The translations under genes and the position numbers were made by a program. 64,000 bases of DNA, from the NCBI GenBank assembly GCA_963665975.1, contig OY762508.1, forward strand, positions 3,357,456 to 3,421,455, written 5' to 3'. The DNA is from Rhodothermales bacterium. GTDB taxonomy: Bacteria; Bacteroidota; Rhodothermia; Rhodothermales; Bin80. Positions 1-31,096 of this stretch are shown piece after piece; the stretch's first letter is position 1; each line of letters starts with the position of its first letter. The notes beneath the pieces were generated by a model. It saw nothing but the letters and a program-made list of their open reading frames with translations, ran no database searches and had not been told where the DNA came from.

Positions 1-1051
1 GAGTGGGTTAAGTTAAGCGGTTCAGGGGATTCGGTTTCGCCTTTCAGAGCGATGGTCAGGTCCTGCATGAGCGTAGCATCTATAGGCGTCAGTCGGGATT
101 CGTAGTGCAAGAAGATGGCGGCAAACCAACGGTGACGCTGATCGGAGGAGCTCCAGCGCTTTACGTTCCGTGTGCGGTGCGTGATGATGCTGTTGAGGTT
201 CTCGATAATGTTGGTCGTCTTCAGGCTGTCTCTGAGCTTCTTGCCTATCCCGAGTCGGTGCAGCGTAAGGGTTTCCTCCAGACCTTCAGACAGGCTTGCA
301 GCCGCCTTTGGACAAGAGTGTGTCAACTCTGCATGGATCGTGTGCAGTGCGGTATGGGCTTCTGTGTACGTTTCTTTCTCCCACGCGGCTTGTAGTCGCG
401 TTTTGAGCGGTTCGGCCTCATCTTTTCTTGAGGTGACCCACCACGTTCTCCCACTTGCGCCACTGGCACCGCTGCAATTCGATGTCGTTGCCAAACGTCT
501 CATATACGGCTTTACGCTGCCCCTTGGCACCGTCCAGAATCACCGACAGCTTGCCGTCATAGGAAAAACCTCGCCGCATGAGATCCTCCAGGAGCGCCTT
601 CACCTGGGCATGCCCTTCCGCCGCTTTCAACGACCGCCAACACCTCCTTCTTGCCCGTGACCGTAACCCCCATGGCCACAATCATCTGCACTCCCTGCAA
701 GCATTTGCCGTCGATAAACAGCACTGCGTACTTCTCCTTGTCCAGCCGACGCGTTTCAACCCGTTCGAGCGCGTTGGCGGAGGTCCCCACAAAGGCGCGC
801 CCTACCGTGCTGGCGCTCCGTCCTATGCTATCGCAAAACGTCTGGACCGCCCCCTTGTAATTGCGCTGGGACAGTCCAGCCAACAACTGCTCACACATCT
901 TCTCATCGTCCAGACCACGCTTTGCGTGTAACCTGCAGCACGTCTCCAGCGGACGTTCCTTGTTCGTTTTGATTTTGCGTACACGGCGCACACGCACCTT
1001 CACACGCTCATTGTTGTAGCGGATCGTGCCTGGATTCGTCCCCCACCGCAT
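1..1051 (-). pseudogene. IS256-family (mutator-type) transposase, broken into at least 3 frames; the element runs off the window start
   Basis: Minus-strand ORF pieces 557-1051 (GTIRYNNERVKVRVRRVR...YAVLFIDGKCLQGVQMIVAMGVTVTGKKEVLAVVESG) and 418-681 (DGKLSVILDGAKGQRKAVYETFGNDIELQRCQWRKWENV) carry IS256-type motifs. Bases 8-417 are homologous to the intact C-terminal ORF at 7433-7804 but have a 1-bp insertion near 309. The stop codon is at 8-10. Confidence 0.8.
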
Positions 1052-1978: not shown

Positions 1979-4900
1979 ATGATTTTCTTCCGGCACACTC
2001 GCAAGCAGTTGCGGTGGCTCCGACGTCCTGGTGGCCTTTCGGTCCGCCTCGGCCTGGGCGCCGTGGCCTGTATGTTGTCCGTGCAGGTTGTCGCAGCCCA
2101 GGAGATTTCGGTTGTGTTCGAAGTCTTGAAAACCCTGTATGACGTAACGGACGGTGACAATTGGAATAACAACGCCAACTGGGACACGACCAGGGTACCC
2201 ACTGCTGCTGAATTGAGTACGTGGCACGGAGTAACCTACACCGACGGTTCATTGACCCAGTTTTTCCTGGTGAACAACAATCTCACTGGTCCGATTCCGC
2301 CCGAATTGGGCAAACTCACAGATCTCAAACACGTTTGTCTCGACAGTAATGCACTCAGCGGTTCGATTCCGTCCGAGTTGGGTGACCTCGTAAATCTCGA
2401 AACCCTTACTGCCAGCACGAATGCGCTAAGCGATCCGATTCCGTCCTCGCTGGGCAACCTCGCAAATCTCAAAGTCCTTTCTCTCGGCGGCAATTCACTA
2501 AGCGATCCGATTCCGTCCGAGTTGGGCAAACTCGCAAATCTCAAATTCCTTTTTCTCTCCGCCAATGAGCTCAGCGGTTCGATTCCGTCTTCGCTGGGCA
2601 ATCTCGAGAATCTCATAATCCTTTCTCTCACCGACAATTCACTCAGCGATCCGATTCCGTCCTCGCTGGGCAACCTCACGAATCTCAGAGAGCTTTATAT
2701 CGCTCACAATTCACTCAGCGGTTCGATTCCGTCCTCGCTGGGCAACCTTACAGAATTCAGACGGCTTGATCTAAGCCATAACAAGTTTACGAATCCGTTA
2801 CCGATGAGCATGACGCAGCTGGGCTTCATGTACGATTTCGACTGGCACGACAACAACGGTCTATGCGCCCCGTTGGACACAGATTTTCAGGACTGGCTTG
2901 CTGAGGTCGAGCGGCGCGGCTGGGCCAGGGGCCCCAACTGTACTGCGCAACAAGCGGCGACGCTCTCGGTGCATGGCGAATCGGTAAGCGAGAGCGCGAG
3001 TGAGGCGGTGGTATCTGCGCGTTTGACGCCATCCAGCACGGAGGAGGTTCGGGTGCATGTTTCCACGGCGGATGGTACCGCGACAGCGGGATCCGACTAC
3101 ACCGCAGGGGCATCGGATCTGGTCTTTGCGCCCGGCGAGACGGAGAAGAGCATCCGGATTGCGATTCTGGATGATGCCCTGGTCGAAGGAGACGAGACGT
3201 TTCAGGTGCAGCTGAGCGGGGCGCAGAACGCGGACATCTCGCGAGGCGCGGCGACGGTGACCATCGTTGACGACGATTTCACGGAAGTGTCGATCGACGA
3301 TGTCGTGGTGGCGGAGGATGAAGGGCGTGCGGTGTTCACGGTGCGTGTTAGTGCACCGTCTACCGGTCCGGTTACGGTGCCCTACACGAGCGTCAACGGT
3401 ACGGCGACGGCGGGAGCGGACTATGTTCCGGTCTCCGAGGAGCTTGTGATTCTTCCGGGGGAGTTGAGCGGGCAGGTGGAGGTGGTCGTGATTGATGATG
3501 AGCGTTTTGAAGAGGACGAGACGTTCACGGTCGTGTTAAACAATGCTGCGGGTGCGGTGCTCGGCGACCACACGGGCGAGGGCACGATTCGGGACAACGA
3601 CCGGTATGGGTTGCGTGTCGATGACGTGACGGTAGGGGAGGCGGATGGCGGGGTGCGCTTTACGGTATCGTTGGACCGGCCGAATCCGGTGCAGATCGTA
3701 CGGGTGACCTACGCCACGGCAAACGGTACGGCGACGGCGGGGTTGGACTACGAAGCGCGAAGCGGCACGCTGGAGTTTTCGTCTGGGGTGGTGAGCCGAA
3801 CCGTACGGGTGCCGATTACGGACGACACGGAATGGGAGGATAGCGAGACGTTGTCACTGGTGTTGAGTGCGCCTCGAAACGCGGAGATTGCAGATAGGGT
3901 CGGAGTGGGTACGATCGTGGATGACGATGCGGTGTATCTTCGGATTGCGGATGTGAGGGCGGAGGAGGGTTCCGAGCACATGGTGTTTGCGGTGCGTCTG
4001 AACAGGCCCAGTCCGGTAGCGGTAAGCGCGTTCTACGAGACGCGGGGAGCGTCGGCGTTGGAGGGGGTGGACTACGTTCGCATGGCAGGGAGCGTGCGGT
4101 TTGCGCCTGGAGAGACGGAGCAGACGATTGTGGTGTCTCTGTTGGATGACGCGCTTGACGAGCCGGACGAGACGTTTCAGGTGCTACTAAGCGGCGTGGA
4201 GCATGCGGAGGTTGCGGTGCCGGAGGCGACAGGTACGATTGTGGATGACGACCGTACACCGGTGCTGGATGTGGTGCAGGGCGTGCGGGTGTTTGAAGGG
4301 GCTGGTAGTGCGTTGTTTGCGGTCACACTGAGCGCACCGAGCGCGTACGAGGTGACGGCAGTCTATGCGACGGTGGACGGTACGGCGCAGGCGGGTTCAG
4401 ACTACGAGGGGGTATCGGGTACGCTGCGCATTGCACCCGGGGAGACGGCAGGCATGCTCCGAGTGTCTATTGTGGATGATGCGGTACGCGAGCCGGAAGA
4501 GACGTTTACGCTGGTGCTGAGCGGGGTGCAGCATGCGGATCTGGGAGCCGGTACAAGCACGGGTACGATTGTGGATGACGAGGCGCCGCTGCACATGCGC
4601 ATAGACGATGTGACGGTAGGAGAGGATGCGGGAAGCGCGGTCTTCACGGTGCGGTTGAGCGGTCAGAGTGCGATGGCGGTGCGGGCGAATTATGCGACCA
4701 CGGACGAGACGGCGACAGTGGGTGCGGACTACACCGAGACGAGTGGCGCCTTGCATTTTGCACCGGGCGAAGTGGAGAAGCGGATTGTGGTGCCGGTGTT
4801 GGAGGACGATGTGGACGAGCCGGACGAGACGTTTCTGGTGCGGTTGAGCGGAGCGGTGGGAGCGGAGATAGCAGGTGGCGCCGGTCGGGGCACGATTACG

Positions 4901-7165
4901 GACAATGACGAGCTGCTGACGGTCAGCATCTATGATGGTCGCGCCTCGGAGGATGCGGGGTTGCTGGTTCTTCCGGTGCGGCTGAGCCGGACGAGTTTGC
5001 GTGTGGTGCGTGTGTTGTATGCGACGTTGGACGAGACGGCGGAGGCGGGCGCCGACTACACCGAGACGAGCGGCAGGGTGGAGTTTGCACCGGGCGAAGT
5101 GGAGAAGGGGATTGTGGTGTCGGTGTTGGAGGACGATGTGGACGAGCCGGACGAGACGTTTTTGGTGCGGTTGAGCGGAGCGGTGAATGCGGAGATTGTA
5201 GAGGGTACAGGTCGGGGTACGATTACGGACAATGACGAGCCGCTGACGATCAGTATCTACGATGGTCGCGCCACGGAGGATGCGGGGTTGCTGCATCTTC
5301 CGGTGCGGCTGAGCCGGACGAGTTCGCGTGTGGTGAGTGTGTTTTTTGAATCTTCGGATCTGACGGCGGAAGCGGGGTTGGACTACGCGGCATCGCGGGG
5401 GATCGTGGTGTTTGAACGCGGCAGTACGGAGGGAGTGGTAGCCATCACGGTGGAGGAAGACGCGCTGGACGAGGATCACGAGACGTTTCAGGTGACGCTA
5501 TCGCGTCCGACGAACGCGGTGATTGCGCGGGGTGTGGCTACCGGAACGATTGGAGACAACGACGGGATGCCGCATTTGCGGATGGACGATATTCTGGTGC
5601 GTGAGGACGGTGAGGCGGCGGTCTTTACGGTGCGGCTTTCGATGCCGAGCACGCGATTGGTAACGGTCGGCTACCGGACTGTTGACGGCACGGCGACGGC
5701 GGGAGCGGACTATGAGGAGACCTCGGGCACGCTCACGTTTGCTCCGGGCACGATGCAAAAGGAGGTGGATGTACGGTTGATGCGCGGGGAGCGGGACTGG
5801 CGGGAGGAGACGTTTACGTTGGCGTTGGCGTCGGCATCGAACGCGTTGTTGGAGGATGCGGTGGCGCTGGCGACGATAGTGGAGGAGGAGCCGATAGAGA
5901 CGGGCGTGTTGGTGGCGTATCTTGCGCGGTTTGCGCGCACGTCGGCGGGGCATGTGACCGAGGCGCTGGGGGAGCGGTTGCGGGAGGTTGCTCCGGTGTG
6001 CGCACCGGTGGCTGGGGCGGGGTTGCAGCTGGTGCGGTACGCGAATCCGCACTGGAATCCGTCGGCGGGAGAGTTGTTGGCGGGTTGCGGTCTGTTGACC
6101 CGTTCGTCTGTCGGTGGTGGAGCGTTCAGCGTGTGGGGTCGTGGCGCATTCACGCGGTGGGGTGGTCGGGAGAGTGCGTTGTCGTTGCGCGCGGATGTGA
6201 CCACGGCGTCGTTTGGAGCGGACTACCGTTGGCGGAGCGGGCTGTTGGCGGGGCTTGTTCTGGCGTACAGCGATGGGGCGGGCACGTTCGAGGCGTATGC
6301 GGCGGACGGGAAGACGGGTGCGAGGCTTACGGGAGTGTATCCGTATGTGAGTTACCGTTTGTGGTCGAGCGACATCTGGGTGTTGGTGGGTCTGGGTCGG
6401 GGTACGGCGGAGGTGGAAGGCGCCAAGCGTGTAGAGGCGGAGCTTGCCGCGAGCCTGGTGGCGGCGGGAGCGACCGGTACGCTGGTACAAGGCGGAACGG
6501 CGCGGTTGTCGTACGAGGCGGATGCGTTTGTTGTCCGGGTAGATGCAGAGGAAGCGAGGCGGATCCTGGTGAGCCGTTTGCGGGCGGGTCTGGAAGGCAG
6601 CGTTCTAATGGGCAGGACGGTACGTCCGTATGTGGAGGTTGCGCTTCGTGGGGATGGTGGGGACGCGGAGACGGGGTTGGGGCTTGAGATGGGAGGAGGA
6701 GTGCGTCTGGCGCATCCGGGCAGCATCCTGCGTGCGGCAGTGGGTGCACGGGGGTTGGTGACGCATGCATCCGCAGGGTTTACGGAATGGGGAGTGGCGG
6801 CAACGCTGCGTTACGGCGCGGCGGGCGGTCTGGGTCCGACAGCGGAACTGCGTCCGGTATGGGGGGCAGGGCAGTCTGGCGGGATGCAGGCGCTGTGGCG
6901 TCACCCTTCGGTAGCGCAAGCGGCGATCAGCGCGTCCGGTCAACAACGCGTGGAGTTGTTGTTGGGGTATGGAGTGGCGCACCCGACAGGGGTGGCGCGT
7001 CCGGTCTTTGCGGTGACCATGCGGGAGGGTGGCCGGGAGTATCGACTTGGCTACGAGGTGAGGCTGCAAAACGGACTGGCGCTGTCCGCGTCCGGGACCG
7101 CACGAGGACATGTCGCAGAGCCTGTCGTGTACGGCATCAGCAGCCACGCGACGCTGCGGTGGTGA
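1979..7165 (+). CDS. Giant secreted protein: signal peptide, about 8 plant-type LRRs, 9 Calx-beta domains, C-terminal autotransporter-like beta-barrel
   Basis: 1,728-aa ORF.
- N-terminus is hydrophobic (GLGAVACMLSVQVVAAQE).
- 24-aa LRR units read LSGSIPSxLGNLxNLxxLxLxxNx.
- Nine ~109-aa units each have G(T)ATAGxDY...FAPGE...DDxxxExDETF...GTIxDDD (Calx-beta signature).
- The last ~420 aa have alternating beta-strand character (FSVWGRGAFTRWGG...FGADYRWRSGLLAGLVLAYSDG...) and a terminal aromatic residue (ATLRW), as in T5SS/OMP barrels. Confidence 0.8.
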   Translation: MIFFRHTRKQLRWLRRPGGLSVRLGLGAVACMLSVQVVAAQEISVVFEVLKTLYDVTDGDNWNNNANWDTTRVPTAAELSTWHGVTYTDGSLTQFFLVNNNLTGPIPPELGKLTDLKHVCLDSNALSGSIPSELGDLVNLETLTASTNALSDPIPSSLGNLANLKVLSLGGNSLSDPIPSELGKLANLKFLFLSANELSGSIPSSLGNLENLIILSLTDNSLSDPIPSSLGNLTNLRELYIAHNSLSGSIPSSLGNLTEFRRLDLSHNKFTNPLPMSMTQLGFMYDFDWHDNNGLCAPLDTDFQDWLAEVERRGWARGPNCTAQQAATLSVHGESVSESASEAVVSARLTPSSTEEVRVHVSTADGTATAGSDYTAGASDLVFAPGETEKSIRIAILDDALVEGDETFQVQLSGAQNADISRGAATVTIVDDDFTEVSIDDVVVAEDEGRAVFTVRVSAPSTGPVTVPYTSVNGTATAGADYVPVSEELVILPGELSGQVEVVVIDDERFEEDETFTVVLNNAAGAVLGDHTGEGTIRDNDRYGLRVDDVTVGEADGGVRFTVSLDRPNPVQIVRVTYATANGTATAGLDYEARSGTLEFSSGVVSRTVRVPITDDTEWEDSETLSLVLSAPRNAEIADRVGVGTIVDDDAVYLRIADVRAEEGSEHMVFAVRLNRPSPVAVSAFYETRGASALEGVDYVRMAGSVRFAPGETEQTIVVSLLDDALDEPDETFQVLLSGVEHAEVAVPEATGTIVDDDRTPVLDVVQGVRVFEGAGSALFAVTLSAPSAYEVTAVYATVDGTAQAGSDYEGVSGTLRIAPGETAGMLRVSIVDDAVREPEETFTLVLSGVQHADLGAGTSTGTIVDDEAPLHMRIDDVTVGEDAGSAVFTVRLSGQSAMAVRANYATTDETATVGADYTETSGALHFAPGEVEKRIVVPVLEDDVDEPDETFLVRLSGAVGAEIAGGAGRGTITDNDELLTVSIYDGRASEDAGLLVLPVRLSRTSLRVVRVLYATLDETAEAGADYTETSGRVEFAPGEVEKGIVVSVLEDDVDEPDETFLVRLSGAVNAEIVEGTGRGTITDNDEPLTISIYDGRATEDAGLLHLPVRLSRTSSRVVSVFFESSDLTAEAGLDYAASRGIVVFERGSTEGVVAITVEEDALDEDHETFQVTLSRPTNAVIARGVATGTIGDNDGMPHLRMDDILVREDGEAAVFTVRLSMPSTRLVTVGYRTVDGTATAGADYEETSGTLTFAPGTMQKEVDVRLMRGERDWREETFTLALASASNALLEDAVALATIVEEEPIETGVLVAYLARFARTSAGHVTEALGERLREVAPVCAPVAGAGLQLVRYANPHWNPSAGELLAGCGLLTRSSVGGGAFSVWGRGAFTRWGGRESALSLRADVTTASFGADYRWRSGLLAGLVLAYSDGAGTFEAYAADGKTGARLTGVYPYVSYRLWSSDIWVLVGLGRGTAEVEGAKRVEAELAASLVAAGATGTLVQGGTARLSYEADAFVVRVDAEEARRILVSRLRAGLEGSVLMGRTVRPYVEVALRGDGGDAETGLGLEMGGGVRLAHPGSILRAAVGARGLVTHASAGFTEWGVAATLRYGAAGGLGPTAELRPVWGAGQSGGMQALWRHPSVAQAAISASGQQRVELLLGYGVAHPTGVARPVFAVTMREGGREYRLGYEVRLQNGLALSASGTARGHVAEPVVYGISSHATLRW
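2282..2857 (+). repeat. 72-bp tandem repeat array (about 8 units) encoding the LRR block
   Basis: The strings cactcagcggttcgattccgtcc / cactaagcgatccgattccgtcc recur with a 72-nt period, and gggcaacctc..aatctc follows the same period. Confidence 0.85.
4724..5377 (+). repeat. 327-bp x 2 tandem duplication inside the Calx-beta array
   Basis: Units 4724-5050 and 5051-5377 both start g-c-[g/c]-gactacaccgagacgag. The encoded 109-aa units are about 80% identical by hand alignment, far above the other Calx-beta pairs. Confidence 0.85.
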
Positions 7166-16751: not shown

Positions 16752-18857
16752 ATGAGCAAACCGAGAGCCATACCGCTTCGTCGCATGCGCAATATTGGCA
16801 TCATGGCCCATATTGACGCAGGCAAGACGACCACCACCGAACGGGTCCTGTTCTACACGGGACGACTGCATCGGATGGGTGAGGTGCACGAAGGCGGTGC
16901 GACGATGGACTGGATGGAGCAGGAGAAGGAGCGCGGTATCACCATTACGAGTGCTGCGACGACCTGCTTCTGGGAGCGGAATTCGGAGGATTACCGCATC
17001 AATATCATTGATACTCCCGGCCACGTGGACTTTACCGTCGAGGTCGAACGCTCGCTGCGCGTTCTGGACGGAGCGATCGCGCTCTTTTGTGCGGTGGGCG
17101 GCGTGGAGCCCCAGTCCGAAACCGTCTGGCGACAGGCAAACAAGTACAAGGTGCCACGGATCGCCTTTGTGAACAAGATGGATCGGACAGGTGCCGACTT
17201 TACGGAGGCCGTCACGTCCATGGCAGAGCGCCTCAAGGCAAAGGCCGTGCCGGTACAGATTCCGATCGGCGCCGGCGCATTGTTTCGGGGCGTGATCGAC
17301 TTGATCACCAATAAAGCTATTATCTGGCACGATGCAACGCAGGGTGCGACGTGGGATGAAATCGACATCCCGGAAGATCTGAAAAACGAGACCAGGCACT
17401 GGCGCATCCTTCTTCTGGAAGCCATAGCCGAGTACAACGACGCCCTGCTCATGAAATATCTCGAAGGGGAGGATATCACCCCCGACGAGATTCGCGAGAC
17501 CGTCCGCAAGGCGACGCTGGACCTGGACATTACACCGGTGTTCTGCGGCACGGCATTCAAGAACAAGGGCATTCAGCGTCTGCTGGATGGCGTAATCGAC
17601 TATCTGCCCAGTCCGCTGGATGTGCCCTCAGTCGAAGGCATTGTCCCGCGCACCGAACGCGTCGTGGAGCGGCGCCCGGTAGTGTCTGAGCCGTTTAGCG
17701 CCATTGCCTTCAAGATTGCCACCGATCCGTATGTCGGAAAGCTGACATTCATGCGCGTCTATAGCGGCGCCCTGGACAAGGGCTCGCAGGTGTACAACGC
17801 GACCACGGACCGCAAGGAGCGTATCGGCCGCCTATTGTTCATGCACGCCAACCGCAGGGAAGATGTGTCGCGTGTCGAGGCGGGTGATATCGCAGCCGCC
17901 GTGGGCCTCAAGAAGGTGCGCACCGGAGAGACGCTCTCGGCTCCGGACGAGCCGGTAATCCTGGAAAAGATGGACTTCCCGGATCCCGTGATTCGGATCG
18001 CCATCGAGCCCCGGACCAAGGCGGATAGCGACAAGCTCACCACCGGCCTGCAGAAGCTGGCCGAGGAGGACCCGACCTTCAAAGTGTCGGTGGATCCGGA
18101 GACCGGGCAAACCCTGATTGCCGGGATGGGAGAGCTGTACCTCGAGATCATCGTAGACCGCCTCCGCCGGGAGTTCAAGGTTGAAGCGAACGTGGGCAAG
18201 CCACAGGTAGCCTACCGCGAAGCCATCAAGAAGACCGTGGACGAGCGGTATACGCACAAGAAGCAGACCGGTGGTCGGGGACAGTTTGCCGTCATCCATG
18301 TGGAGATCGGTCCCAATGAGAGTGGCGTCGGCTTTGAGTTCGTCAACGAAATCGTCGGAGGGGCCATCCCGAAGGAGTTTATTCCCTCTGTCCAGAAAGG
18401 CATCCAGGCGGCGCTGGACCAAGGCCCGCTGGCTGGCTATCCGATCGAAGGCGTCAAGGCGCGACTGTATGACGGCAAGCATCACGACGTGGATTCGGAC
18501 CAGCACGCCTTTGAAATCGCAGGTCAGATGGCCTTCCGCAGCGCAGCCCGCAAGGCGAGGCCTGTGCTCATGGAGCCCATCATGAACGTCGAAGTCGTGA
18601 CGCCCGAACAGTATATGGGAGATGTCATCGGCGACCTCAACAGCCGTCGGGGACGCATATCATCGATGAACCAGCGGCAAGATGCCCATGTCATCAATGC
18701 GCTGGTGCCGCTGTCCCACATGTTTGGGTACTCGACCGATATGCGGTCGATCACCCAGGGCCGCGCGATCTATTCGATGCAGTTCGAGACCTACGAAGAG
18801 GTCCCAAAGAGTATCGCGGAATCTATCGTCCTGACAACCAACGGGGCGGCGAGGTAA
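16752..18857 (+). CDS. fusA: Elongation factor G
   Basis: 701 aa with [17 protein letters not shown] and NKMD motifs. Confidence 0.97.
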
Positions 18858-18891
18858 TCCGCACGAGCAGACACACAAACCGCAACACGCC

Positions 18892-20082
18892 ATGGCTAAA
18901 GAACATTTTCAACGTACGAAGCCGCATGTCAACGTAGGAACGATAGGGCATGTGGACCACGGCAAGACGACCCTTACGGCGGCGATCACGAAGGTGCTGA
19001 ACGATAGGTATGGGGGTACGGAGGTGCGTTCGTTTGATTCGATTGACAACGCACCGGAGGAGCGTGAGCGCGGTATCACGATAGCGACGGCGCATGTGGA
19101 GTACGAGACGGGAGAGCGGCACTATGCGCATGTGGACTGTCCGGGTCACGCGGACTATGTGAAGAACATGGTGACGGGTGCGGCACAGATGGACGGAGCG
19201 ATATTGGTGGTTGATGCGTCGGATGGTCCGATGCCACAGACGCGGGAGCACATCTTGTTGGCCCGTCAGGTGGGAGTTCCGTACATCGTGGTGTTCATGA
19301 ACAAGGTGGATTTGGTGGATGACGAGGAGTTGTTGGAGTTGGTGGAGATGGAGGTACGGGAGTTGTTGGAGCAGTATGAGTTTCCGGGTGATGACATTCC
19401 GGTGGTGATGGGTTCGGCGTTGGGAGCGTTGAACGGGGAGTCGGACTGGGAGGACAAGATATTGGAGTTGATGGGTTCGGTGGACGGGTACATTCCGACT
19501 CCGGAGCGCGACAAGGACAAGCCGTTTTTGATGCCGGTGGAGGATGTATTTTCGATTACGGGTCGAGGTACGGTAGCGACGGGCCGGGTGGAGCGCGGAG
19601 TGGTGAAGACGGGTGAGAAGGTGGAGATTGTAGGGATACGAGAGGAGAAGCGTTCGACGGTGGTGACGGGAGTGGAGATGTTTCGGAAGATACTGGATGA
19701 GGGTCAGGCGGGAGACAACGTGGGGTTGTTGTTGCGTGGAGTGGGTAAGGACGAGGTGGAGCGCGGTCAGGTGGTAGTGCATCCGGATTCGATTACGCCG
19801 CACAAGGAGTTTTTGTGTGAGGTGTACGTATTGAGCAAAGAGGAGGGAGGTCGTCACACGCCGTTTTTCAAGGGGTATCGTCCGCAGTTTTACTTTCGGA
19901 CGACGGATGTGACGGGTGATATCGAGTTGCCGGAGGGAGTAGAGATGGTGATGCCTGGCGACAACACGCAGTTTGAGGTGAAGTTGATACAGCCGGTGGC
20001 GATGGAGCAGGGATTGCGTTTTGCGATCCGGGAAGGGGGCAAGACGGTAGGCGCAGGCGTCGTGTCCAAAATCCTGGACTAA
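18892..20082 (+). CDS. tuf: Elongation factor Tu
   Basis: 396 aa with [17 protein letters not shown] and NKVD motifs. Codon usage is atypical (see findings). Confidence 0.97.
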
Positions 20083-20110
20083 CCTCGCGACCGAAATCCG
20101 ACACGGACTT

Positions 20111-20419
20111 ATGACAAGCCAGAAGATTCGCATCAAGCTCAAGTCGTACGATCATACGCTGATCGACAAGAGCGCGGAAAAGATCATCAAGACCGTCAAG
20201 TCGACGGGTGCTGTGGTCAGCGGACCTATTCCGCTGCCTACGAAAAAGGCGATCTATACGGTGCTGCGAAGCCCGCATGTCAACAAGAAGAGTCGCGAGC
20301 AGTTTGAGAGCCGCAGCCACAAACGGCTGATCGACATTCTGTCAACCAGCAGCAAAACCGTGGATGCCCTGATGAAGCTCGAGCTTCCCAGTGGCGTTGA
20401 TGTTGAAATCAAGGTTTAA
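20111..20419 (+). CDS. rpsJ: 30S ribosomal protein S10
   Basis: 102 aa: [25 protein letters not shown]...[15 protein letters not shown]. Confidence 0.97.
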
Positions 20420-20454
20420 CCCGTGTAAAAAGCGGGAGTGAAACGAGTACTGCG

Positions 20455-21084
20455 ATGAGCGGCATGATCGGAAAGAAGGTTGGCATGACCAGCATCTTTG
20501 ATGCAGAGGGGAATAACATCCCGTGCACCATCCTGGAGCTTGGTCCCAACGTGGTCGTTCAGGTCAAGCGGTCCGAAGACAAGGACGGCTACGATGCCGT
20601 TCAGTTGGGATTTGGAGCCCGAAAGCCACGCCGAACCACGAGTGCGATGCGCGGCCATTTTGGCGCTGCCGGCGTGCTGCCACAGCGCGTACTGGTAGAA
20701 TTTGCATGGTCTGGCGAAGAGCTGGCGCAGGGGGACGAAGTGCGCGTTGAAGATGTCTTCGTGGAAGGAGAAATGGTCGACGTCGCCGGAACTTCCAAAG
20801 GCAAGGGATTCCAGGGTGTTGTCCGCCGCCACGGATTCCGTGGCGTCAACGATCGGACGCACGGCCAGCACAACCGCGAACGCGCCCCTGGCTCGATCGG
20901 CGCTTCATCGGACCCGTCGCGCGTGTTCAAGGGCATGCGCATGGGTGGACGCATGGGCGGTCGCAGAACGAAAGTCAAGAATCTGGACGTGGCACGCATT
21001 TTTCCGGAGCATAATCTGATCCTCGTACGCGGGGCCGTTCCCGGTCCTGCTAATGGCGTGGTGCAGGTATACAAGAAGCCGTGA
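20455..21084 (+). CDS. rplC: 50S ribosomal protein L3
   Basis: 209 aa: GMIGKKVGMTSIFD...TSKGKGFQGVVRRHGF. Confidence 0.97.
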   Translation: MSGMIGKKVGMTSIFDAEGNNIPCTILELGPNVVVQVKRSEDKDGYDAVQLGFGARKPRRTTSAMRGHFGAAGVLPQRVLVEFAWSGEELAQGDEVRVEDVFVEGEMVDVAGTSKGKGFQGVVRRHGFRGVNDRTHGQHNRERAPGSIGASSDPSRVFKGMRMGGRMGGRRTKVKNLDVARIFPEHNLILVRGAVPGPANGVVQVYKKP

Positions 21085-21088
21085 TCCC

Positions 21089-21754
21089 ATGGAATTAGCG
21101 GTATACCATGTAGACGGGAGCGAGACAGGCCGTACGGTGGTCCTGGATGTCGGCGTCTTTGGCGCGGAGCCCAATGACCATGTGCTGTGGCTAGACATAC
21201 GGCGCACCCAGGCGACCAGCCGCCAGGGAACGCACAAGACCAAGGAACGAAGCGAAATCACCGGCAGCACGCGGAAGCTGTATCGCCAGAAAGGCACCGG
21301 CATGGCGCGCTCCGGTAATATCAAATCTCCGATCAAGCGAAGCGGCGGGCGAGCGTTCGGTCCGCGTCCGCGGAGTTATGGTCTCCGGCTGAGCCGGAAG
21401 ACGCGCCGCCTTGCGCGCCGGTCAGCGCTGAGCTACAAGGCGGGGGAGGAGGCCATTCGCGTGGTCGAGCCCCTTGTGTTCGCCGAGCCGGACACGGCAC
21501 TGCTGGTGAACCTCATGGAGGCCCTCGCCCTAACGGAGAAACGTGCTCTCGTGGTAACGGCGGCGCATGCGCCGAACGTGTACCGTTCCAGTCGCAATCT
21601 GGCGAAGATCGCCGTGCGCGAAGCACGCTGCGTGTCTGCAGAAGATATTCTGCGGGCCGGTGTGCTGGTCTGCGAAGAAGGCGCCGTGGATGTGCTTGCG
21701 CACACGCTGGGCGGTGCTGCGAAGGAAACGGTCGCCGAAGAGGCGCACGCCTGA
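21089..21754 (+). CDS. rplD: 50S ribosomal protein L4
   Basis: From the ATG at 21089: MELAVYHVDGSETGRTV...RKLYRQKGTGMARSGNIKSP. The track start at 21053 overlaps rplC. Confidence 0.93.
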   Translation: MELAVYHVDGSETGRTVVLDVGVFGAEPNDHVLWLDIRRTQATSRQGTHKTKERSEITGSTRKLYRQKGTGMARSGNIKSPIKRSGGRAFGPRPRSYGLRLSRKTRRLARRSALSYKAGEEAIRVVEPLVFAEPDTALLVNLMEALALTEKRALVVTAAHAPNVYRSSRNLAKIAVREARCVSAEDILRAGVLVCEEGAVDVLAHTLGGAAKETVAEEAHA

Positions 21755-21773
21755 ATCTAGACGGATTAACGAA

Positions 21774-22073
21774 ATGAGCCGCGAAATACTGATCCGCCCC
21801 ATGGTGACCGAAAAGCTCACGCAGCTTATGGAAGCGGGGCACTACGGCTTCGAAGTGGATATCCACGCCAACAAGATCGAGATTCGCAAGGCCGTGGAAG
21901 AGCGGTTTCCCGGGTCGAAGATTCAGGAGGTCAGGACCATGATCGTGCGCGGAAAGCGTCGGCAGCAGTTTACTCGCCGGGGCGTGCGCCAGGGGCGAAC
22001 GGCGCGCATCAAGAAGGCCATTGTAACGCTCGCGCCGGATAGCGAACCGATTAACTTCTTCGAGGGGATCTAA
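21774..22073 (+). CDS. rplW: 50S ribosomal protein L23
   Basis: From the ATG at 21774: MSREILIRPMVTEKLTQLMEAGHYGFEVDIHANKIEIRKAVEERF. Confidence 0.93.
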   Translation: MSREILIRPMVTEKLTQLMEAGHYGFEVDIHANKIEIRKAVEERFPGSKIQEVRTMIVRGKRRQQFTRRGVRQGRTARIKKAIVTLAPDSEPINFFEGI

Positions 22074-22096
22074 GCGGCCTGTAAAGGCGAAACGCC

Positions 22097-22930
22097 ATGG
22101 GTATTCGAAAGCTCAAGCCGGTAACACCAGGGCAGCGTCATCGCTCCGTTTCGGATTTCGAAACGATCACGGAGGCGAAGCCGGAGAAGCGCCTGTTGGC
22201 GCCGCTCAAGAGAAAAGGTGGCCGCAACAGCACAGGCCGTATGACGGTGCGCAGTCAGGGGGGCGGCCACAAGCGCCGCTACCGCATCATCGACTTTAAG
22301 CGTGACAAGGACGGGCCGACCGCGCGCGTGGCGTCAATCGAATATGACCCGAACCGGTCGGCGAGAATCGCGCTCCTGGTCTACTCGGATGGCGACAAGC
22401 GCTATATCATTGCGCCGGACAAGTTGTCGGTGGGTGACCGCGTCGAGAATGGGCCAAACGCCGCGCCGGAGACCGGCAACTGCATGCCGCTGTCGAAAAT
22501 TCCGCTCGGCACATTCGTCCACGCTATTGAAATGAAGCCCGGCAAGGGTGCGCAGTTGGCGCGCTCGGCAGGCACCTATGCGCAGTTGACCGCAAAGGAG
22601 GGCCGCTATGTGACGCTCAAGCTGCCTTCTGGCGAAGTGCGGCAAATCCTCGCGCGCTGCCGCGCGACGATTGGTACGACGAGCAACCCCGATCACATGA
22701 ATGTCGATCTGGGAAAGGCCGGTCGTAACAGGTGGATGGGCAAACGGCCGAAAACGCGGGGTGTCGCCATGAACCCGGTGGACCATCCCATGGGCGGTGG
22801 AGAAGGCAAAGCTTCCGGTGGCCATCCACGCTCTCCGTGGGGACAGCCCGCCAAGGGATTCAAGACACGCAAACGAAAAAAACCGTCGGACAAATACATT
22901 GTCCACCGCCGAGGCACGAAACGCAGGTAG
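22097..22930 (+). CDS. rplB: 50S ribosomal protein L2
   Basis: 277 aa: [14 protein letters not shown]...[28 protein letters not shown]...HPMGGGEGK. Confidence 0.97.
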
Positions 22931-22936
22931 TCTCCT

Positions 22937-23218
22937 ATGGCACGTTCTCTAAAAAAGGGACCGTACGTCTACTATAAGCTGCAGCGCAAAGTAGACCAGC
23001 TCAATCAGAGCGACAAGAAAAAGGTGGTCAAGACCTGGAGCCGGTCCTCCATGATCACCCCCGATTTTGTAGGACACACCTTCGCCGTGCATAACGGAAG
23101 GCAGTTTATTCCGGTATATGTCACCGAAAACATGGTGGGCCACCGCCTGGGCGAATTTTCGCCGACACGAACGTTTCGCGGGCACGCCGGGAGCAAACGG
23201 GATAAACGGGGCAGATAA
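22937..23218 (+). CDS. rpsS: 30S ribosomal protein S19
   Basis: 93 aa: [11 protein letters not shown]...[42 protein letters not shown]. Confidence 0.97.
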
Positions 23219-23233
23219 CACACGCATCCGACC

Positions 23234-23602
23234 ATGGAAGCACGCGCCATCCGAAAATATATTCGCAGCTCACCGCGCAAGATGCGCCGCGTAATCAATG
23301 TGATTCGCGGTCGCAGCGTGGCCGGAGCGCTTGAGGCGTTGCATTTTTTGCCGCAGAGCGCCACGCGACCTGTAGAGCTGACCATTCGCTCCGCCGTCCA
23401 TAATCTGATGGACCAGCATCAGGGCGAGCGGTTTGATGAGAACGATCTGTTCATCTCCTCCATCCATGTGGATGAAGGCCCGACATTTCGCCGCTTCCGC
23501 CCGGCTCCCCGGGGACGCGCGCATCCGTATCGGAAGCGCTTGAGTCACCTTACGGTCGTGGTGCGGACTGGTAGCGACATCGAAGACACTAAAGACGCCT
23601 AA
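23234..23602 (+). CDS. rplV: 50S ribosomal protein L22
   Basis: 122 aa: MEARAIRKYIRSSPRKMRRVINVIRGRSV..ALEALHF. Confidence 0.96.
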   Translation: MEARAIRKYIRSSPRKMRRVINVIRGRSVAGALEALHFLPQSATRPVELTIRSAVHNLMDQHQGERFDENDLFISSIHVDEGPTFRRFRPAPRGRAHPYRKRLSHLTVVVRTGSDIEDTKDA

Positions 23603-23627
23603 CCAACCTCAGAACCTGTAGCGGCTC

Positions 23628-24413
23628 ATGGGTCAGAAAACGCACCCTATCGGCTTTCGCCTCGGCATCATTCGCGGCTGGGATTCCAACTGGTATGCCA
23701 GCAAGAAGGATATGCCCGCGAAGCTCGTAGAGGACGAAGAGATTCGTCGCTATATGGCAGCGCGTCTCAAACGGGCGGGAATGAGCCGCATCGTGATTGA
23801 GCGCACGCCGCGGAGGATTATCCTTACGCTGCACACCAGTCGGCCTGGCGTTGTTATCGGACGAGGCGGCGCCGAGGTTGAAAAGCTGCGCGAAGAGATC
23901 AAGAAGCTGACGAACAAGGATATCCAGATTAACATCAACGAAATCAAACGTCCGGAAGTTGACGCGAGTCTGGTTGCCCAGAACGTGGCGCAGCAACTGG
24001 AGGGACGCGTTTCGTTTCGTCGCGCGATGAAGCAGGCAATTACGGCAGCCATGCGGATGGGCGCACAGGGTATTCGGATCAAGGTCGGAGGGCGGCTCGG
24101 CGGCGCGGAAATGGGTCGTGTCGAGCAGTATCTGGAGGGCCGCGTCCCTCTCCACACCATTCGCGCCGATATCGACTATTCCGACGCCACGGCCTTTACG
24201 ATCTACGGCACGATCGGCGTCAAGGTCTGGATATACCGGGGGGAAATTCTCGGCAAGCCGGATCTCAGTCCCAACGTGCAGGCGCAGCGTCAGCAGATGC
24301 AGCAGATGCACACCGGGGGACGTCGCAGTGGAGAAAGCAAGGCGAAAGATCGCAGGCGCAGAGGGGGCGGCGGGGGCCGTCGGGGCCGTTCGGGCGGAGC
24401 GCAACGTAAGTAA
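23628..24413 (+). CDS. rpsC: 30S ribosomal protein S3 with a basic Arg/Gly-rich C-terminal tail
   Basis: 261 aa: [24 protein letters not shown]... with KH and S3-C domains, tail ...[26 protein letters not shown]. Confidence 0.96.
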
Positions 24414-24454
24414 TCGTTACACGAGAGGATTTCAACAGGCCTGTGGGGTAGATC

Positions 24455-24877
24455 ATGTTAATGCCCAAACGCACCAAGTACCGCAAGCAGCAAAAGGGCC
24501 GCATTCGCGGGAATTCGTCTCGTGGAACGAGAGTGGATTTTGGCGACTTCGGACTGAAAGCGCTCGAGCCAGGCAGAATCACGAGCCGGCAGATTGAGGC
24601 CGCCCGTATCGCCATGACGCGTCGCATGAAGCGTGCCGGAAAGGTGTATATCCGCGTTTTTCCCGACAAGCCGATTACCAAGAAGCCCGCAGAAGTCCGG
24701 ATGGGCAAGGGCAAGGGATCGATTGACCACTGGGCAGCGCAAATTCACCCCGGACGGATCTTGTTCGAAATAGGCGGTGGCGTGCCACTGGCTCTTGCTC
24801 GCGAGTCCTTGCGCCTCGCACAGCAGAAGCTGCCTATCAAGACTAAAATGGTTGTACGACCTGACTACACGCAGTAA
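24455..24877 (+). CDS. rplP: 50S ribosomal protein L16
   Basis: 140 aa: [19 protein letters not shown]... Confidence 0.97.
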
Positions 24878-24879
24878 CC

Positions 24880-25098
24880 ATGCTGAAGGCCAAAGAGGTG
24901 CACGCGTTAAGCGTGGAGGAAATACGGGAGCGGGTGCGCGAAGAAACGGAGCAACTCCGGGAGCTCAGCTTCCGGCATGCCATTGCGCAACTGGAGAACC
25001 CGATGATTTTGCGGGAAAAGCGCCGCTTCCTTGCCCGACTCAAGACCATCCTCAAGGAGATCGAGAACGCTCCTGCGGACCTGGAACAGACTTCCTGA
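24880..25098 (+). CDS. rpmC: 50S ribosomal protein L29
   Basis: 72 aa: [41 protein letters not shown]. Confidence 0.93.
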
Positions 25099-25102
25099 CA
25101 CT

Positions 25103-25366
25103 ATGGACTCAACTCCACGCTCGGCTCGCAAAGAGCGCATCGGCATTGTCGTAAGCAACAAGATGAACAAGAGCATCCTGGTCGGCATCCAGCGCCAGAT
25201 CAAACACCCGATGTACGGGAAGTTTATCAAGAAGACGACGAAGCTCATGGCTCATGACGAACACGACGATGCCAATGAGGGCGATACGGTGCGCGTGATC
25301 GAGACGCGGCCACTCAGCAAGAGAAAGCGTTGGCGTCTCGTCGAAGTCGTAGAGCGCGCCAAGTAA
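25103..25366 (+). CDS. rpsQ: 30S ribosomal protein S17
   Basis: From the ATG at 25103: [53 protein letters not shown]. Confidence 0.93.
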
Positions 25367-25395
25367 GCCGGATTCAACTCGTAACGGTACCGATC

Positions 25396-25764
25396 ATGAT
25401 TCAGCAAGAATCCAGACTCAACGTAGCGGACAACAGTGGCGCCAAGGAGGTGCTCTGTATCCGTGTTCTGGGAGGCAGCGGCCGGCGCTATGCTCGCGTG
25501 GGTGACAGGATCGTCGTCACCGTCAAGTCAGCAATTCCCGGTGGCAATGTGAAGAAGGGCGAGGTTTCAAGGGCGGTTGTGGTCCGGACCAGAAAGGAGG
25601 AACGCCGCAGGGATGGCTCCTACATTCGCTTTGATGAGAATGCGGCCGTGCTGCTCAATGCACAGGGCGAACCCAGAGGCACCCGCATTTTCGGGCCGGT
25701 GGCCCGCGAACTGCGTGAAAAGCGGTACATGCGTATCGTCTCCCTCGCTCCAGAAGTCATTTAG
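25396..25764 (+). CDS. rplN: 50S ribosomal protein L14
   Basis: From the ATG at 25396: [27 protein letters not shown]. Confidence 0.95.
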
Positions 25765-25781
25765 CAAACCAAAACAGAGCC

Positions 25782-26165
25782 ATGGCTCGCGCCAACAGAA
25801 AGCGCCGGAAACCGCACGTAAAGAAAGGGGACATGGTCATGTTGAACAAGACCATCACCGCGGGAGAGGTGAGTGATGCTCGCGATGCGGGCTATACGGG
25901 CAAGGTGCTCAAAGTCTTCCCGGATAAAGACCGCATCATTGTGGAAGGGGTCAACCTGCGCGTGCGGCACACCAAGCCTAATCAGCTACACCCTCAGGGC
26001 GGGCGCGTTCAGCGCGAAATGCCCATCCATATGTCGAACGTGCAACCAATCGACTCCGAGGGCAATGCCACACGCATCGGCCGCAAACGTATCGACAACC
26101 TGGATGCGGAAGGCGGACGCTGGATCAGGTACGCCAAGACGACCGGCGAGGAGCTGGACACCTAA
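25782..26165 (+). CDS. rplX: 50S ribosomal protein L24
   Basis: 127 aa with KKGDMVMLNK...GKVLKVFPDKDRIIVEGVNLRVRHTKP (KOW motif); position in the spc operon. Confidence 0.92.
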   Translation: MARANRKRRKPHVKKGDMVMLNKTITAGEVSDARDAGYTGKVLKVFPDKDRIIVEGVNLRVRHTKPNQLHPQGGRVQREMPIHMSNVQPIDSEGNATRIGRKRIDNLDAEGGRWIRYAKTTGEELDT

Positions 26166-26179
26166 GAAAGCGGTAGACA

Positions 26180-26752
26180 ATGAATTCGTATACACCACGT
26201 CTGAAGGTGCGTTATCAGGGCGAAATCATTCCCCTGTTGCGGAAGCAGTTCGCCTACCGCAATAACCTGCAGGTGCCGCGACTGGTCAAGATCGTGGTCA
26301 ACAAGGGGGTTGGTGAGGCTACGCAGAACCAGAAGCTGCTCAACGGCGCAGTCGAGGAGCTGCGGCTGATTACCGGTCAGCAGCCCACGGTACGCCGGGC
26401 ACGCAAGAGTGTGTCGAATTTCAAGCTCCGGGAAGGCATGGCCGTCGGTGCCAGCGTTTCGCTGCGTGGAGATCGCATGTGGGAATTCCTGGATCGGCTC
26501 ATTACGCTTGCCCTGCCGCGCGTTCGCGACTTTCGCGGAGTGCCGGACCGTAGCTTTGACGGACGGGGCAATTACTCGCTTGGCATCAAGGAGCAGATCA
26601 TCTTTCCCGAGATCAATGTCGACAAGATCGAACGGATAAGCGGGCTTGATGTGACGATCGTCACGACAGCCAACACTGACGAAGAAGCTATTGCCTTGCT
26701 CAAGAATTTGGGCATGCCCTTTGTGCGGCGGGAAGGCGCAGCAGCCGCCTGA
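26180..26752 (+). CDS. rplE: 50S ribosomal protein L5
   Basis: 190 aa: ...[15 protein letters not shown]...[18 protein letters not shown]. Confidence 0.96.
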
Positions 26753-26781
26753 GCATTTTTCTCTGTAACAACTGTAGAACT

Positions 26782-27051
26782 ATGGCAAAGAAAAGCTGGA
26801 CAGCACGCCAGAAGAAGCGCGAGCGGATGGTGGCCAAGTATGCGGAAAGGCGTCGGAAGCTCAAGGAGGCTGGCGACCATCAGGGGCTGCAGCAATTGCC
26901 ACGCAATGCAAGCCCCTCCCGTTTGCGCAACCGATGCCAGCTGACTGGCCGGGCGCGTGGCTATATTCGCGTGTTTGGGATTTCCAGAATTGTCTTTCGG
27001 GATATGGCCCGTGAAGGCAAGATTCCAGGCATACGCAAGGCGAGCTGGTAA
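26782..27051 (+). CDS. rpsN: 30S ribosomal protein S14 (long, non-zinc form)
   Basis: 89 aa: ...[43 protein letters not shown]. It has a single Cys, so no CxxC pairs. Confidence 0.95.
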
Positions 27052-27085
27052 TGCTCATCGAAACGGAACCTATAAGCCTCGACCT

Positions 27086-27487
27086 ATGAGTGGAATCACG
27101 GACCCTGTGGCGGATTATCTGACGCGTATCAGGAATGCCCAGATGGCGGCGCATCGCTTCACCGATGTGCCGGCGTCCAAAATAAAGCGTGCCATTACCC
27201 AGATCCTCCTGGAAAAGGGATATATCCGGCATTATCTCAACGTTGACGACGGCAAGCAGGGACTACTCCGAATTTACCTCAAGTACGACCGTAAGGGTCG
27301 GCCAGTAATCCAGGAGTTGACGCGCGTGTCCACCCCCGGCTTGCGCCAGTACGTGAACGCGAAGGATCTGCCTCGGGTGCGCAATGGCCTGGGGACTGCG
27401 ATTGTATCCACCTCGCGAGGGGTGATGACGGACAAGGAGGCACGCAAGATCAACGTGGGAGGCGAAGTGCTGGCGTACGTCTTTTAG
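27086..27487 (+). CDS. rpsH: 30S ribosomal protein S8
   Basis: From the ATG at 27086: [32 protein letters not shown]. Confidence 0.94.
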
Positions 27488-27531
27488 GCTGTAACCGGGT
27501 CCCGACGGCGGGGCCGAAGGCGAGAACTACT

Positions 27532-28089
27532 ATGTCCCGGATTGGAAAGCTGCCGATTGACTTCAGTGGAGACGTGAAAATCACGCTGGAGCCGAATAAC
27601 GTGGTGAAGGTCTCCGGACCCAAGGGAGAGTTGCATCTGCAGGTCGACCCCGAGATCACCGTTGAAGTAGAAGCAAGTCAAGTACATGTCAAGCGTCCCA
27701 CGGACCAGAAGCGGCACCGGTCGATGCACGGTCTGTACCGGTCACTCATCCAGAACATGGTGATCGGGGTGGCGACGGGGTACCGCAAGGAGCTGGAAGT
27801 GGTTGGCGTTGGGTCGAGGGCCGAGGTCAAGAACGGAATCCTGGAACTGGCCTTGGGTTTCTCGCATCCGATCTATTTCCTGCCTCCAGAGGGCATCAAG
27901 GTTTCGGCGGACCCCGGACGCCGGGGACAGAACCCGAAGATCACCATCGAGGGCATCGACAAGCAGATGGTCGGACAGGTAGCCGCCAAGATCCGCGCAT
28001 TGCGGCCACCCGAGCCGTATAAGGGCAAGGGAGTGCGCTATGTAGGCGAATACATACGCCGCAAGGCTGGCAAGACAGCAGCCCGCTAG
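27532..28089 (+). CDS. rplF: 50S ribosomal protein L6
   Basis: 185 aa: MSRIGKLPIDFSGDVKITLEPNNVVKVSGPKGEL. Confidence 0.96.
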   Translation: MSRIGKLPIDFSGDVKITLEPNNVVKVSGPKGELHLQVDPEITVEVEASQVHVKRPTDQKRHRSMHGLYRSLIQNMVIGVATGYRKELEVVGVGSRAEVKNGILELALGFSHPIYFLPPEGIKVSADPGRRGQNPKITIEGIDKQMVGQVAAKIRALRPPEPYKGKGVRYVGEYIRRKAGKTAAR

Positions 28090-28122
28090 TCATCCATCGG
28101 CGACGATAACGGAAACAATCAC

Positions 28123-28488: not shown

Positions 28489-28507
28489 AAAACCTGACGT
28501 ATAGCAC

Positions 28508-29032: not shown

Positions 29033-29049
29033 TAACCCGACACGTCGTA

Positions 29050-29238: not shown

Positions 29239-29271
29239 TCTTGGCCGAGTGGTCTAAACCTTGAAAAAGCA

Positions 29272-29745: not shown

Positions 29746-29775
29746 TCCGGGATAACCGACAAGCCAGGACGCGAA

Positions 29776-31095: not shown

Positions 31096-31096
31096 C

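Follow-up and report, generated by a model that had tools for sequence, protein, structure and literature searches.

How a bacterium might hold a plant-like leucine-rich repeat (LRR) domain at its surface is the question raised by a single large gene of a Rhodothermales bacterium (assembly GCA_963665975.1). The gene occupies positions 1979..7165 (+) of the window, the 64,000-nucleotide stretch analysed here (contig OY762508.1, positions 3,357,456 to 3,421,455), and in the list of open reading frames (ORFs) it runs from an ATG start through 1,728 codons to a stop. Its translation is 100% identical to a protein on record, P0061 (1,728 amino acids, aa), which is encoded on a contig of 3,934,742 bp. 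An earlier note on this DNA, made from the sequence alone, had reported exactly this ORF and had divided its product into a signal peptide, LRRs, Calx-beta modules and a C-terminal barrel region; Pfam, the sequence and structural models all agree with that order. Overall, the protein is probably an autotransporter-like surface adhesin or receptor, dependent on Sec and the beta-barrel assembly machinery (BAM), with a swappable head that binds ligands on a host or neighbour. Its barrel is predicted to be a distinct, enlarged variant related to those of autotransporters, with 18 strands and homology over about the first ten.

The C terminus had been described as a translocator of about 420 residues resembling those of type V secretion and ending in ATLRW. 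The last 427 residues (5882-7162) do end in this way, are related to PF03797 (Autotransporter) through their family and are predicted to form a barrel, but the window protein's own PF03797 score is sub-threshold, at 19.6-20.7 bits against a gathering score of 26. This match covers residues 1387-1479 and profile positions 3-94 of 255. Among the Pfam families that the earlier note had named, PF03160 and LRR_8 passed their cut-offs, while PF03797 fell short and LRRNT_2 was not matched. No NCBIfam model, those for autotransporter barrels included, matched the C-terminal region, and a phmmer search of the PDB with the domain returned chance-level matches only. A profile of the C-terminal-domain alignment recovered only Calx-beta structures from the PDB, by way of its passenger columns.

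The relationship to autotransporters is carried by the homologues. A first search found 60, nearly all of them unnamed proteins from metagenome assemblies; their passengers are Calx-beta, PKD, FN3 or cadherin-like, and ...RW is the ending of most of them. When 40 family members were scanned singly, seven exceeded the gathering score of PF03797, which indicates that the C-terminal domain is a divergent relative of the autotransporter beta-domain; eight further members touched OMP_b-brl. The best of the seven is P0002 (38.3 bits, E 1.7e-9), with a barrel 58% identical to that of the window protein. In P0034, the PF03797 alignment takes up residues 242-444 (203 residues) and profile positions 1-210 of 255, and 172 residues remain to the C terminus. 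This alignment suggests that about ten strands are autotransporter-like and are succeeded by about eight more, compared with two in a classical barrel.

To estimate the size of the family, 1.84 billion cluster representatives (50% identity clusters) were scored with a profile built from the barrels of 20 members. It matched 10,510 clusters at E<=1e-3, of which 8,711 also passed E<=1e-10 and 5,848 passed E<=1e-30, and the domain was C-terminal in all of the 150 best matches, in proteins of 500-5,500 aa. None of 32 randomly sampled representatives matched PF03797 at E<=1e-3. The passengers of this sample contain Calx-beta domains in 29 cases, FN3 in 14, SWM repeats in 8, cadherin-like domains in 4, SRCR in 3 and LRRs in 2, and the Calx-beta domain mostly stands directly before a helix. 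This helix is conserved throughout the family with the consensus AWLARFGRTVAxQV (hereafter the ARFGRT helix); in the window protein it forms the junction at residues 1306-1335 (YLARFARTSAGHV..., 5894..5983), as judged from both family conservation and AlphaFold2 (AF2). The sampled passengers point to a constant unit of Calx-beta, helix and barrel with varying distal domains of adhesion type. At the level of sequence, the membrane-proximal Calx-beta domain, ARFGRT helix and barrel thus form a cassette that stays constant as an anchor while the 'eukaryotic-like' heads on it vary (LRR, FN3, cadherin, SRCR).

Structural models are consistent with a barrel larger than expected. The earlier note had anticipated a 12-stranded barrel with a helix, and of these features the transmembrane beta-barrel and the helix upstream of it are predicted by AF2, whereas the strand number is not: two models have 18 long strands each, and template modelling (TM) scores against 12-stranded autotransporter barrels are about 0.5. 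The first model, of the window protein's C-terminal domain, was made from a 40-sequence alignment (predicted local distance difference test, pLDDT, 83.5; predicted TM-score, pTM, 0.79). It comprises a 30-residue helix, a low-confidence linker of about 46 residues, one short strand and the 18 long strands, which are joined by turns of 2-6 residues except for a 26-residue loop between strands 13 and 14. Counted along the C-terminal query, the helix spans residues 5-34, and its first three 10-residue blocks have mean pLDDT values of 84-94; pLDDT is <50 at query residues 38-67, and the short strand lies at 70-74. In window coordinates, the linker with its short conserved strand (LLxGxxF) corresponds to 5984..6121 and the predicted outer-membrane barrel to 6122..7162 (aa 1382-1728), the latter assigned from AF2, Foldseek and the sub-threshold PF03797 match. 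The second model, of the 37% identical P0014 (pLDDT 79.9, pTM 0.72), likewise has a helix followed by 18 long strands, so the upstream helix is present in both.

Foldseek searches of the PDB placed the autotransporters EstA, Hbp, EspP, BrkA, NalP and AaaA among the best matches, mixed with TonB-dependent transporters (TBDTs) and LptD. Matches with a Foldseek probability of 1.0 include EstA, Hbp, EspP, BrkA and NalP as well as larger barrels. TM-scores ranged from 0.3 to 0.55 overall and from 0.49 to 0.55 when normalised to 12-stranded autotransporter barrels, and no solved structure matched globally. TBDTs are 22-stranded. Middling scores to both classes are what would be expected of a barrel with neither 12 nor 22 strands.

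It could be argued that the domain is an ordinary 12-stranded type Va autotransporter barrel, that the count of 18 is an artefact of AlphaFold and DSSP, and that the additional residues form loops or a sheet outside the membrane. The high rank of autotransporters in Foldseek, at or near the top, and the PF03797 matches inside the family would both fit such a barrel, and closure of the larger one is a prediction to which covariation was too weak to add. Several observations make this explanation unlikely, however. Eighteen long strands were predicted with high confidence in two divergent members, and the barrel region of about 347 aa is long for a PF03797 profile of 255 positions. In P0034 the PF03797 match ends near profile position 210 with about 170 residues left, and the TM-scores normalised to 12-stranded barrels do not exceed the range given above. 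Additionally, the extra strands are as amphipathic as the rest: in 306 family sequences, the largest two-residue hydrophobic alternation was found in strands 9-18, a range that takes in the extra strands 13-18. When 306 family barrels (effective number 171) were subjected to mean-field direct coupling analysis (DCA), many hairpins of neighbouring strands emerged, but the signal was too noisy to show or exclude pairing of the first and last strands.

If the C-terminal domain is an autotransporter relative, the remainder of the protein would be its passenger. Inspection and Kyte-Doolittle hydropathy, which together are the basis of the call, predict a Sec signal peptide at residues 1-40 (1979..2098), as the earlier note had stated. 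It has a long basic n-region, then a hydrophobic stretch at residues 19-40 (means of 1.4-2.2 in 12-residue windows starting at aa 19-28), and a cleavage site at VAA|QE. At the other end of the protein, the terminal ATLRW has the form of an aromatic beta-signal, and the last residue is W or F in 145 of 150 family representatives.

A different possibility is that the barrel is merely a membrane anchor or pore and not an exporter, so that the LRRs and Calx-beta domains would be periplasmic or brought to the surface by another machine. BamA, LptD and TBDTs are outer-membrane proteins (OMPs) with N-terminal periplasmic domains, as are many others; TBDTs and LptD are also among the Foldseek matches. 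Moreover, Ig-like passengers with cysteines capable of forming disulfides are awkward for classical hairpin export, and the genome encodes a cargo protein of the type IX secretion system (T9SS). This cargo gene, at 48796-50352 (-), had already been proposed and proved to be real: it encodes a choice-of-anchor B protein that contains LVIVD repeats (TIGR04312, E 3e-120) and matches the type A sorting domain Por_Secre_tail (TIGR04183) with 25.1 bits against a cut-off of 23. Its presence indicates that the genome uses T9SS besides the barrel-anchored route. Pfam and NCBIfam scans of the window protein, however, found no Por_Secre_tail sorting domain (PF18962 / TIGR04183), no RTX or type I secretion (T1SS) signal and no lipobox. 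The order of helix and barrel and the kinship with PF03797 are autotransporter traits, the passengers of the family are extracellular modules of adhesion type, and no conserved partner gene adjoins. A rigid stalk of nine Calx-beta domains with a binding tip would also be implausible in the periplasm. An anchor without an export function is therefore considered improbable, the more so of these two alternatives.

Other export classes were considered for the window protein and set aside. It is not an inverse (type Ve) autotransporter, because its barrel is at the C-terminal and not the N-terminal end. Pfam found no POTRA, Omp85 or intimin-type matches in it, and without these it does not conform to two-partner (Vb) or patatin-like (Vd) systems, which have POTRA domains and an Omp85 barrel of 16 strands. 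A T9SS cargo was rejected for lack of a C-terminal sorting domain, and an RTX/T1SS adhesin for lack of a matching signal.

A number of points weigh against reading the protein as a Sec/BAM-dependent autotransporter relative with a host or neighbour ligand. As described above, the window protein itself is below the PF03797 cut-off. Comparison of the family by hhalign with E. coli Ag43 alone, and then with nine classical autotransporter beta-domains of plasmid and chromosomal origin (an alignment in which two sequences are truncated by frame problems), gave probabilities <1%. Hmmsearch of the same set with a hidden Markov model of the 306 family sequences returned collinear fragments at chance level only. 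Since these comparisons with Ag43/AIDA-type and other classical barrels are not significant, no direct similarity to AIDA-type barrels can be demonstrated, and it is PF03797 that connects the family with autotransporters. A closed barrel and an exact number of strands are model predictions, a place for the helix in the lumen is conjectural, and pairing of strands 1 and 18 was undetected by the noisy DCA, in which the highest score of an antiparallel ladder was 0.63 and that of the parallel null 0.57. A low-confidence linker of about 46 residues between helix and first strand is unlike classical autotransporters, and Ig-like or LRR passengers with pairs of cysteines are atypical for type Va export. 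Finally, a sponge origin of the window genome is inferred from its relatives. The largest uncertainty concerns the number of strands and the position of the helix.

The head of the passenger largely conforms to the earlier description. LRR_1 matches the N-terminal third in eight stretches (E 3e-25), and LRR_14, LRR_4 and LRR_8 are likewise above their cut-offs. Seven repeats fit L..L..L.L..N.L in an exact 24-residue register at aa 113-280, and the eighth lies at aa 89-112, so that repeat register and LRR_1 together bear out the eight or so 24-residue repeats that had been claimed (aa 89-280, 2243..2818). All eight fit the consensus of the plant-specific (PS) class, LxxLxxLxLxxNxL(S/T)GxIPxxLGx, which is part of the established classification of LRRs, and their DNA forms a 72-bp tandem array at 2307-2756. 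The repeats are preceded by a segment resembling an N-terminal cap at aa 41-88 (2099..2242; ...LYDVTDGDNWNNNANWDTT...LSTWHGVTY). The motif that had suggested an LRRNT-like cap is indeed present, but its resemblance stays at the level of the motif (W...W...WxGV), and Pfam gave no LRRNT_2 (PF08263) match to it even at E<=10. A C-terminal cap follows at aa 281-335 (2819..2983; ...NNGLCAPLDTDFQDWL...GPNC).

The head had also been called eukaryote-like. This holds for its class but not for any demonstrable origin, because PS-class repeats are frequent in bacterial surface proteins. The best LRR matches elsewhere are such proteins, many of them with T9SS tails, which indicates that this class of head is shared across export systems and that a recent eukaryotic origin is unnecessary; a recently eukaryote-derived head was rejected since the closest matches are bacterial. 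The G+C content of the LRR-coding part (2001-3000) is about 54-54.5%, compared with 62-67% for the Calx-beta and barrel parts (3001-7000), which also have a strong positive GC skew of about +0.3. The lower G+C content fits a head with a history other than that of the scaffold.

The stalk extends over aa ~336-1300 (2984..5878). PF03160 matches it in nine stretches (E 5e-163, 533 bits against a cut-off of 27), in accord with the nine consecutive Calx-beta modules claimed for it. An acidic motif of the DD..E..ETF type is kept in seven of the nine, and from these motifs the domains are predicted to bind Ca2+. A 327-bp tandem array at 4691-5494 spans adjacent Calx-beta units. The DNA of copies one and two (4691-5343) shares about 88% identity, and this tandem duplication is a recent internal expansion of the stalk. 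Cysteines are present at aa 296 and 321 in the LRR C-terminal cap and at aa 1341 and 1370 in the linker between helix and barrel (window positions ~2864, 2939, 5999 and 6086). A possible disulfide so close to the translocator would not be typical of classical autotransporters.

Comparison with close relatives suggests that head and scaffold have evolved differently. The source genome holds three paralogues, whose LRR heads have 8, 5 or 4 repeats. P0181 (1,874 aa) and P0182 (1,632 aa) are encoded on the same contig as P0061 and fall in the same 90%-identity cluster. Compared with the window protein, they are 89-92% identical in the signal peptide and cap, 96-99% in Calx-beta domains 2-9, 95% in the helix and linker and 96-97% in the barrel. 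The LRR C-terminal cap is only 58-71% identical, and the LRR block about 62-70% where it can be aligned at all. P0181 also has additional N-terminal copies of the Calx-beta domain. A fourth protein of this contig, P0073, has a barrel 66% identical to that of the window protein and a Calx-beta stalk but no LRRs. As far as alignment can tell, the paralogues share a conserved scaffold whose head is exchangeable.

The same order of LRRs, Calx-beta domains and barrel recurs in at least 11 proteins of related Rhodothermales metagenome-assembled genomes (MAGs). Two of these, P0064 and P0080, come from one Rhodothermales MAG of 5.4 Mb, and another, P0076, is named 'hypothetical protein [Rhodothermaceae bacterium]'. 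The earlier note had not recognised the combination as a described family. To the extent that the family is unnamed and that no paper describing it was found, this was correct, but the architecture is not unique, although its other occurrences, where they have a name, are called only 'hypothetical protein'. Across the barrel family, names in the source records are 'hypothetical' or absent, and a search of the accessible literature found no paper that ties these proteins to an autotransporter-type anchor or describes a family of LRRs, Calx-beta domains and barrel.

The distribution of the family bears on what the heads might bind. A conserved motif, D[GAL]GDAETGxG, has at least 521 confirmed copies in GTDB species-representative genomes, and the best 78 of these loci are all in MAGs. 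Among the loci listed are members of Rhodothermales, Latescibacterota, Entotheonella, Binatia, Vicinamibacterales, Longimicrobiales, Alpha- and Gammaproteobacteria and Spirochaetia, with several copies per genome in Rhodothermales (5 to 9 among the loci listed). In some related MAGs, two or three genes of the barrel family adjoin in tandem or divergently (L024 965-12823; L001, L038, L050, L018). Adjoining genes and multiple copies per genome indicate large paralogous repertoires. Several of the best loci fall in documented MAG sets of sponge symbionts; the bin names APA_bin, SB06xx and jk18x denote sets from Aplysina aerophoba, Ircinia ramosa and Caribbean Ircinia sponges. According to the studies of these sets, LRR and/or Calx-beta belong to the 'eukaryotic-like' domain classes that are enriched in symbionts of sponges (PMC11706023, PMC9531527).

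Based on this evidence, components of the surface or matrix of a host (sponge) or of neighbouring cells are the most likely targets. This proposal draws on the distribution of the family, on the classes of domain displayed and on the fact that sponge aggregation factors are themselves Calx-beta arrays, all of which is circumstantial. A role in binding host or neighbour ligands with swapping of heads is suggested more specifically by the loci in sponge-symbiont MAGs together with the three nearly identical scaffolds with differing LRR heads.

Alternatively, export may proceed as proposed and the target may be something other than an animal host. The protein would then serve bacterial aggregation, biofilm formation or the binding of particles or prey, and its heads would vary under pressure from phages or grazers. 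Self-associating autotransporters such as Ag43 mediate aggregation of cells, PS-class LRR arrays are frequent on Bacteroidota surface proteins, many of which have T9SS tails, and the analysis identified no host ligand. The evidence pointing the other way is circumstantial throughout: the best listed loci of the family lie in MAGs, of which several come from documented sponge sets; the passenger classes (Calx-beta, SRCR, FN3, cadherin, LRR) are reported as enriched in sponge symbionts in two studies (PMC11706023, PMC9531527); and sponge aggregation factors contain 2-15 Calx-beta domains and are Ca2+-dependent (PMC5400394). A non-host target is regarded as a minority possibility, though a serious one.

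Taken together, a host- or neighbour-binding adhesin could operate as follows, with export route, barrel size and ligand all being points that we infer. The Sec signal peptide would direct the precursor to the periplasm, where BAM would insert the C-terminal ~350 residues as a beta-barrel by means of the aromatic beta-signal (...ATLRW). The conserved helix would join barrel and passenger, as in type Va autotransporters, leaving the N-terminal passenger exposed outside the cell. Loaded with Ca2+ at the calcium concentration of seawater, the nine Calx-beta domains would form a rigid stalk tens of nanometres long, presenting the eight-repeat LRR solenoid as a tip that might bind a protein or glycan ligand. 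Swapping of heads among nearly identical scaffolds would then vary the specificity.

Comparison with known systems shows both similarities and differences. Like the type Va autotransporters EstA, Hbp, EspP, NalP and BrkA, the window protein has a signal peptide, a passenger, a helix and a C-terminal barrel with an aromatic end; for roughly the first 10 strands its family shows kinship with PF03797, type Va proteins are among its top structural matches, and no accessory gene adjoins. Unlike them, it has 18 predicted strands instead of 12, a sub-threshold PF03797 score of its own, no NCBIfam barrel match and the ~46-aa linker between helix and first strand. Its passenger consists of LRRs and Calx-beta domains, whereas that of type Va is a beta-helix, and a membrane-proximal Calx-beta domain and ARFGRT helix are conserved in the anchor of its family.

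Among autotransporters, LasAI of Liberibacter is the closest precedent for a passenger made of LRRs (PMC3708911). LasAI and LasAII of 'Candidatus Liberibacter asiaticus' also carry LRRs on a C-terminal autotransporter translocator, and their repeat number differs between copies. Their repeats, however, are of another, longer type, they are prophage-encoded and lack a signal peptide and Calx-beta stalk, and their translocators are predicted to have 10-12 strands (PMC3708911). Many Bacteroidota have large surface proteins with PS-class LRR arrays 40-50% identical to the window head, and many of these bear the T9SS sorting domain PF18962 (e.g., P0105, P0114, P0119), in place of which the window protein has an autotransporter-like barrel. 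The sponge aggregation factors MAFp4 and AqAFs resemble it in that many Ca2+-binding Calx-beta domains in tandem serve as an adhesive scaffold outside the cell; they are proteins of the host animal with Wreath and VWA/VWD domains, and the comparison is by domain class only (PMC5400394). The eukaryotic-like proteins (ELPs) of sponge symbionts have the same domain classes (LRR, Calx-beta, FN3, cadherin), and several of the best loci come from sponge MAG sets analysed or cited in the accessible parts of those studies, which count Pfam domains without treating export or anchoring; here the domains share a C-terminal barrel cassette (PMC11706023, PMC9531527).

The gene lies in a core chromosomal region. 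The window encodes pyruvate kinase, a TPR protein, FtsH, EF-G, EF-Tu, the S10/spc/alpha ribosomal operons, SecY, RpoA and RelA/SpoT, and from 16752 to 35520 EF-G, EF-Tu, the S10/spc/alpha operons, SecY, methionine aminopeptidase and RpoA follow in their usual order. Within the 64 kb there is no BamA, TamA or conserved partner gene, no tRNA or Rfam family was detected, and scans for promoters and terminators gave nothing relevant. About 0.9 kb upstream of the giant gene is a truncated ORF of 164 aa for an IS256-family transposase (557..1051, -; NCBIfam NF033543, E 1.6e-14, profile positions 20-163 of 338), and a DDE transposase (L079 6603-7550, -) stands directly upstream of the orthologue P0070 at locus L079. 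These transposases may be relevant to movement of the gene or exchange of its head. A protein with CBM9 and DUF5916 is encoded at 43851-46055 (+), and a homologous pair occurs at L079 17209-19515 (-), about 5 kb from the orthologous adhesin gene. The proximity is probably a coincidence, and both are likely to be outer-membrane or surface proteins. A sulfatase-family enzyme at 50899-52380 (+) has partial matches to arylsulfatase and choline-sulfatase, a class often noted in bacteria associated with sponges.

In conclusion, the evidence partly supports the earlier interpretation: the architecture is recurrent yet unnamed rather than unique, and the barrel is related to those of autotransporters but by prediction neither canonical nor 12-stranded. 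A broader proposal is that the cassette, with its 18-stranded barrel, represents an undescribed subclass of type V secretion whose enlarged pore serves to export and to anchor folded or disulfide-bonded Ig-like and LRR arrays, that it spread horizontally among sponge symbionts of many phyla as a display platform common to them and that the LRR heads are a repertoire for host recognition. This is entertained tentatively, and that a larger barrel would enable export of Ig-like or cysteine-containing domains is speculation. The known barrels of type V systems have 8, 12 or 16 strands, or 3x4 in trimers, so an 18-stranded relative, if true, would widen this range and would bear on the old question of how passengers cross the barrel.

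Studies of sponge microbiomes have catalogued 'eukaryotic-like' proteins (LRR, Calx-beta, FN3, cadherin) as a hallmark of the symbiosis and, in their accessible parts, leave export to the surface and anchoring there unaddressed (PMC11706023, PMC9531527). A C-terminal anchor shared by thousands of clusters would explain how ELPs reach the bacterial surface and stay on it. The barrel profile and the DGGDAETG motif would provide a simple sequence handle for the subset of ELPs displayed in this way, and the three paralogues, with nearly identical scaffolds and differing LRR heads, constitute a natural experiment on the specificity of the head.

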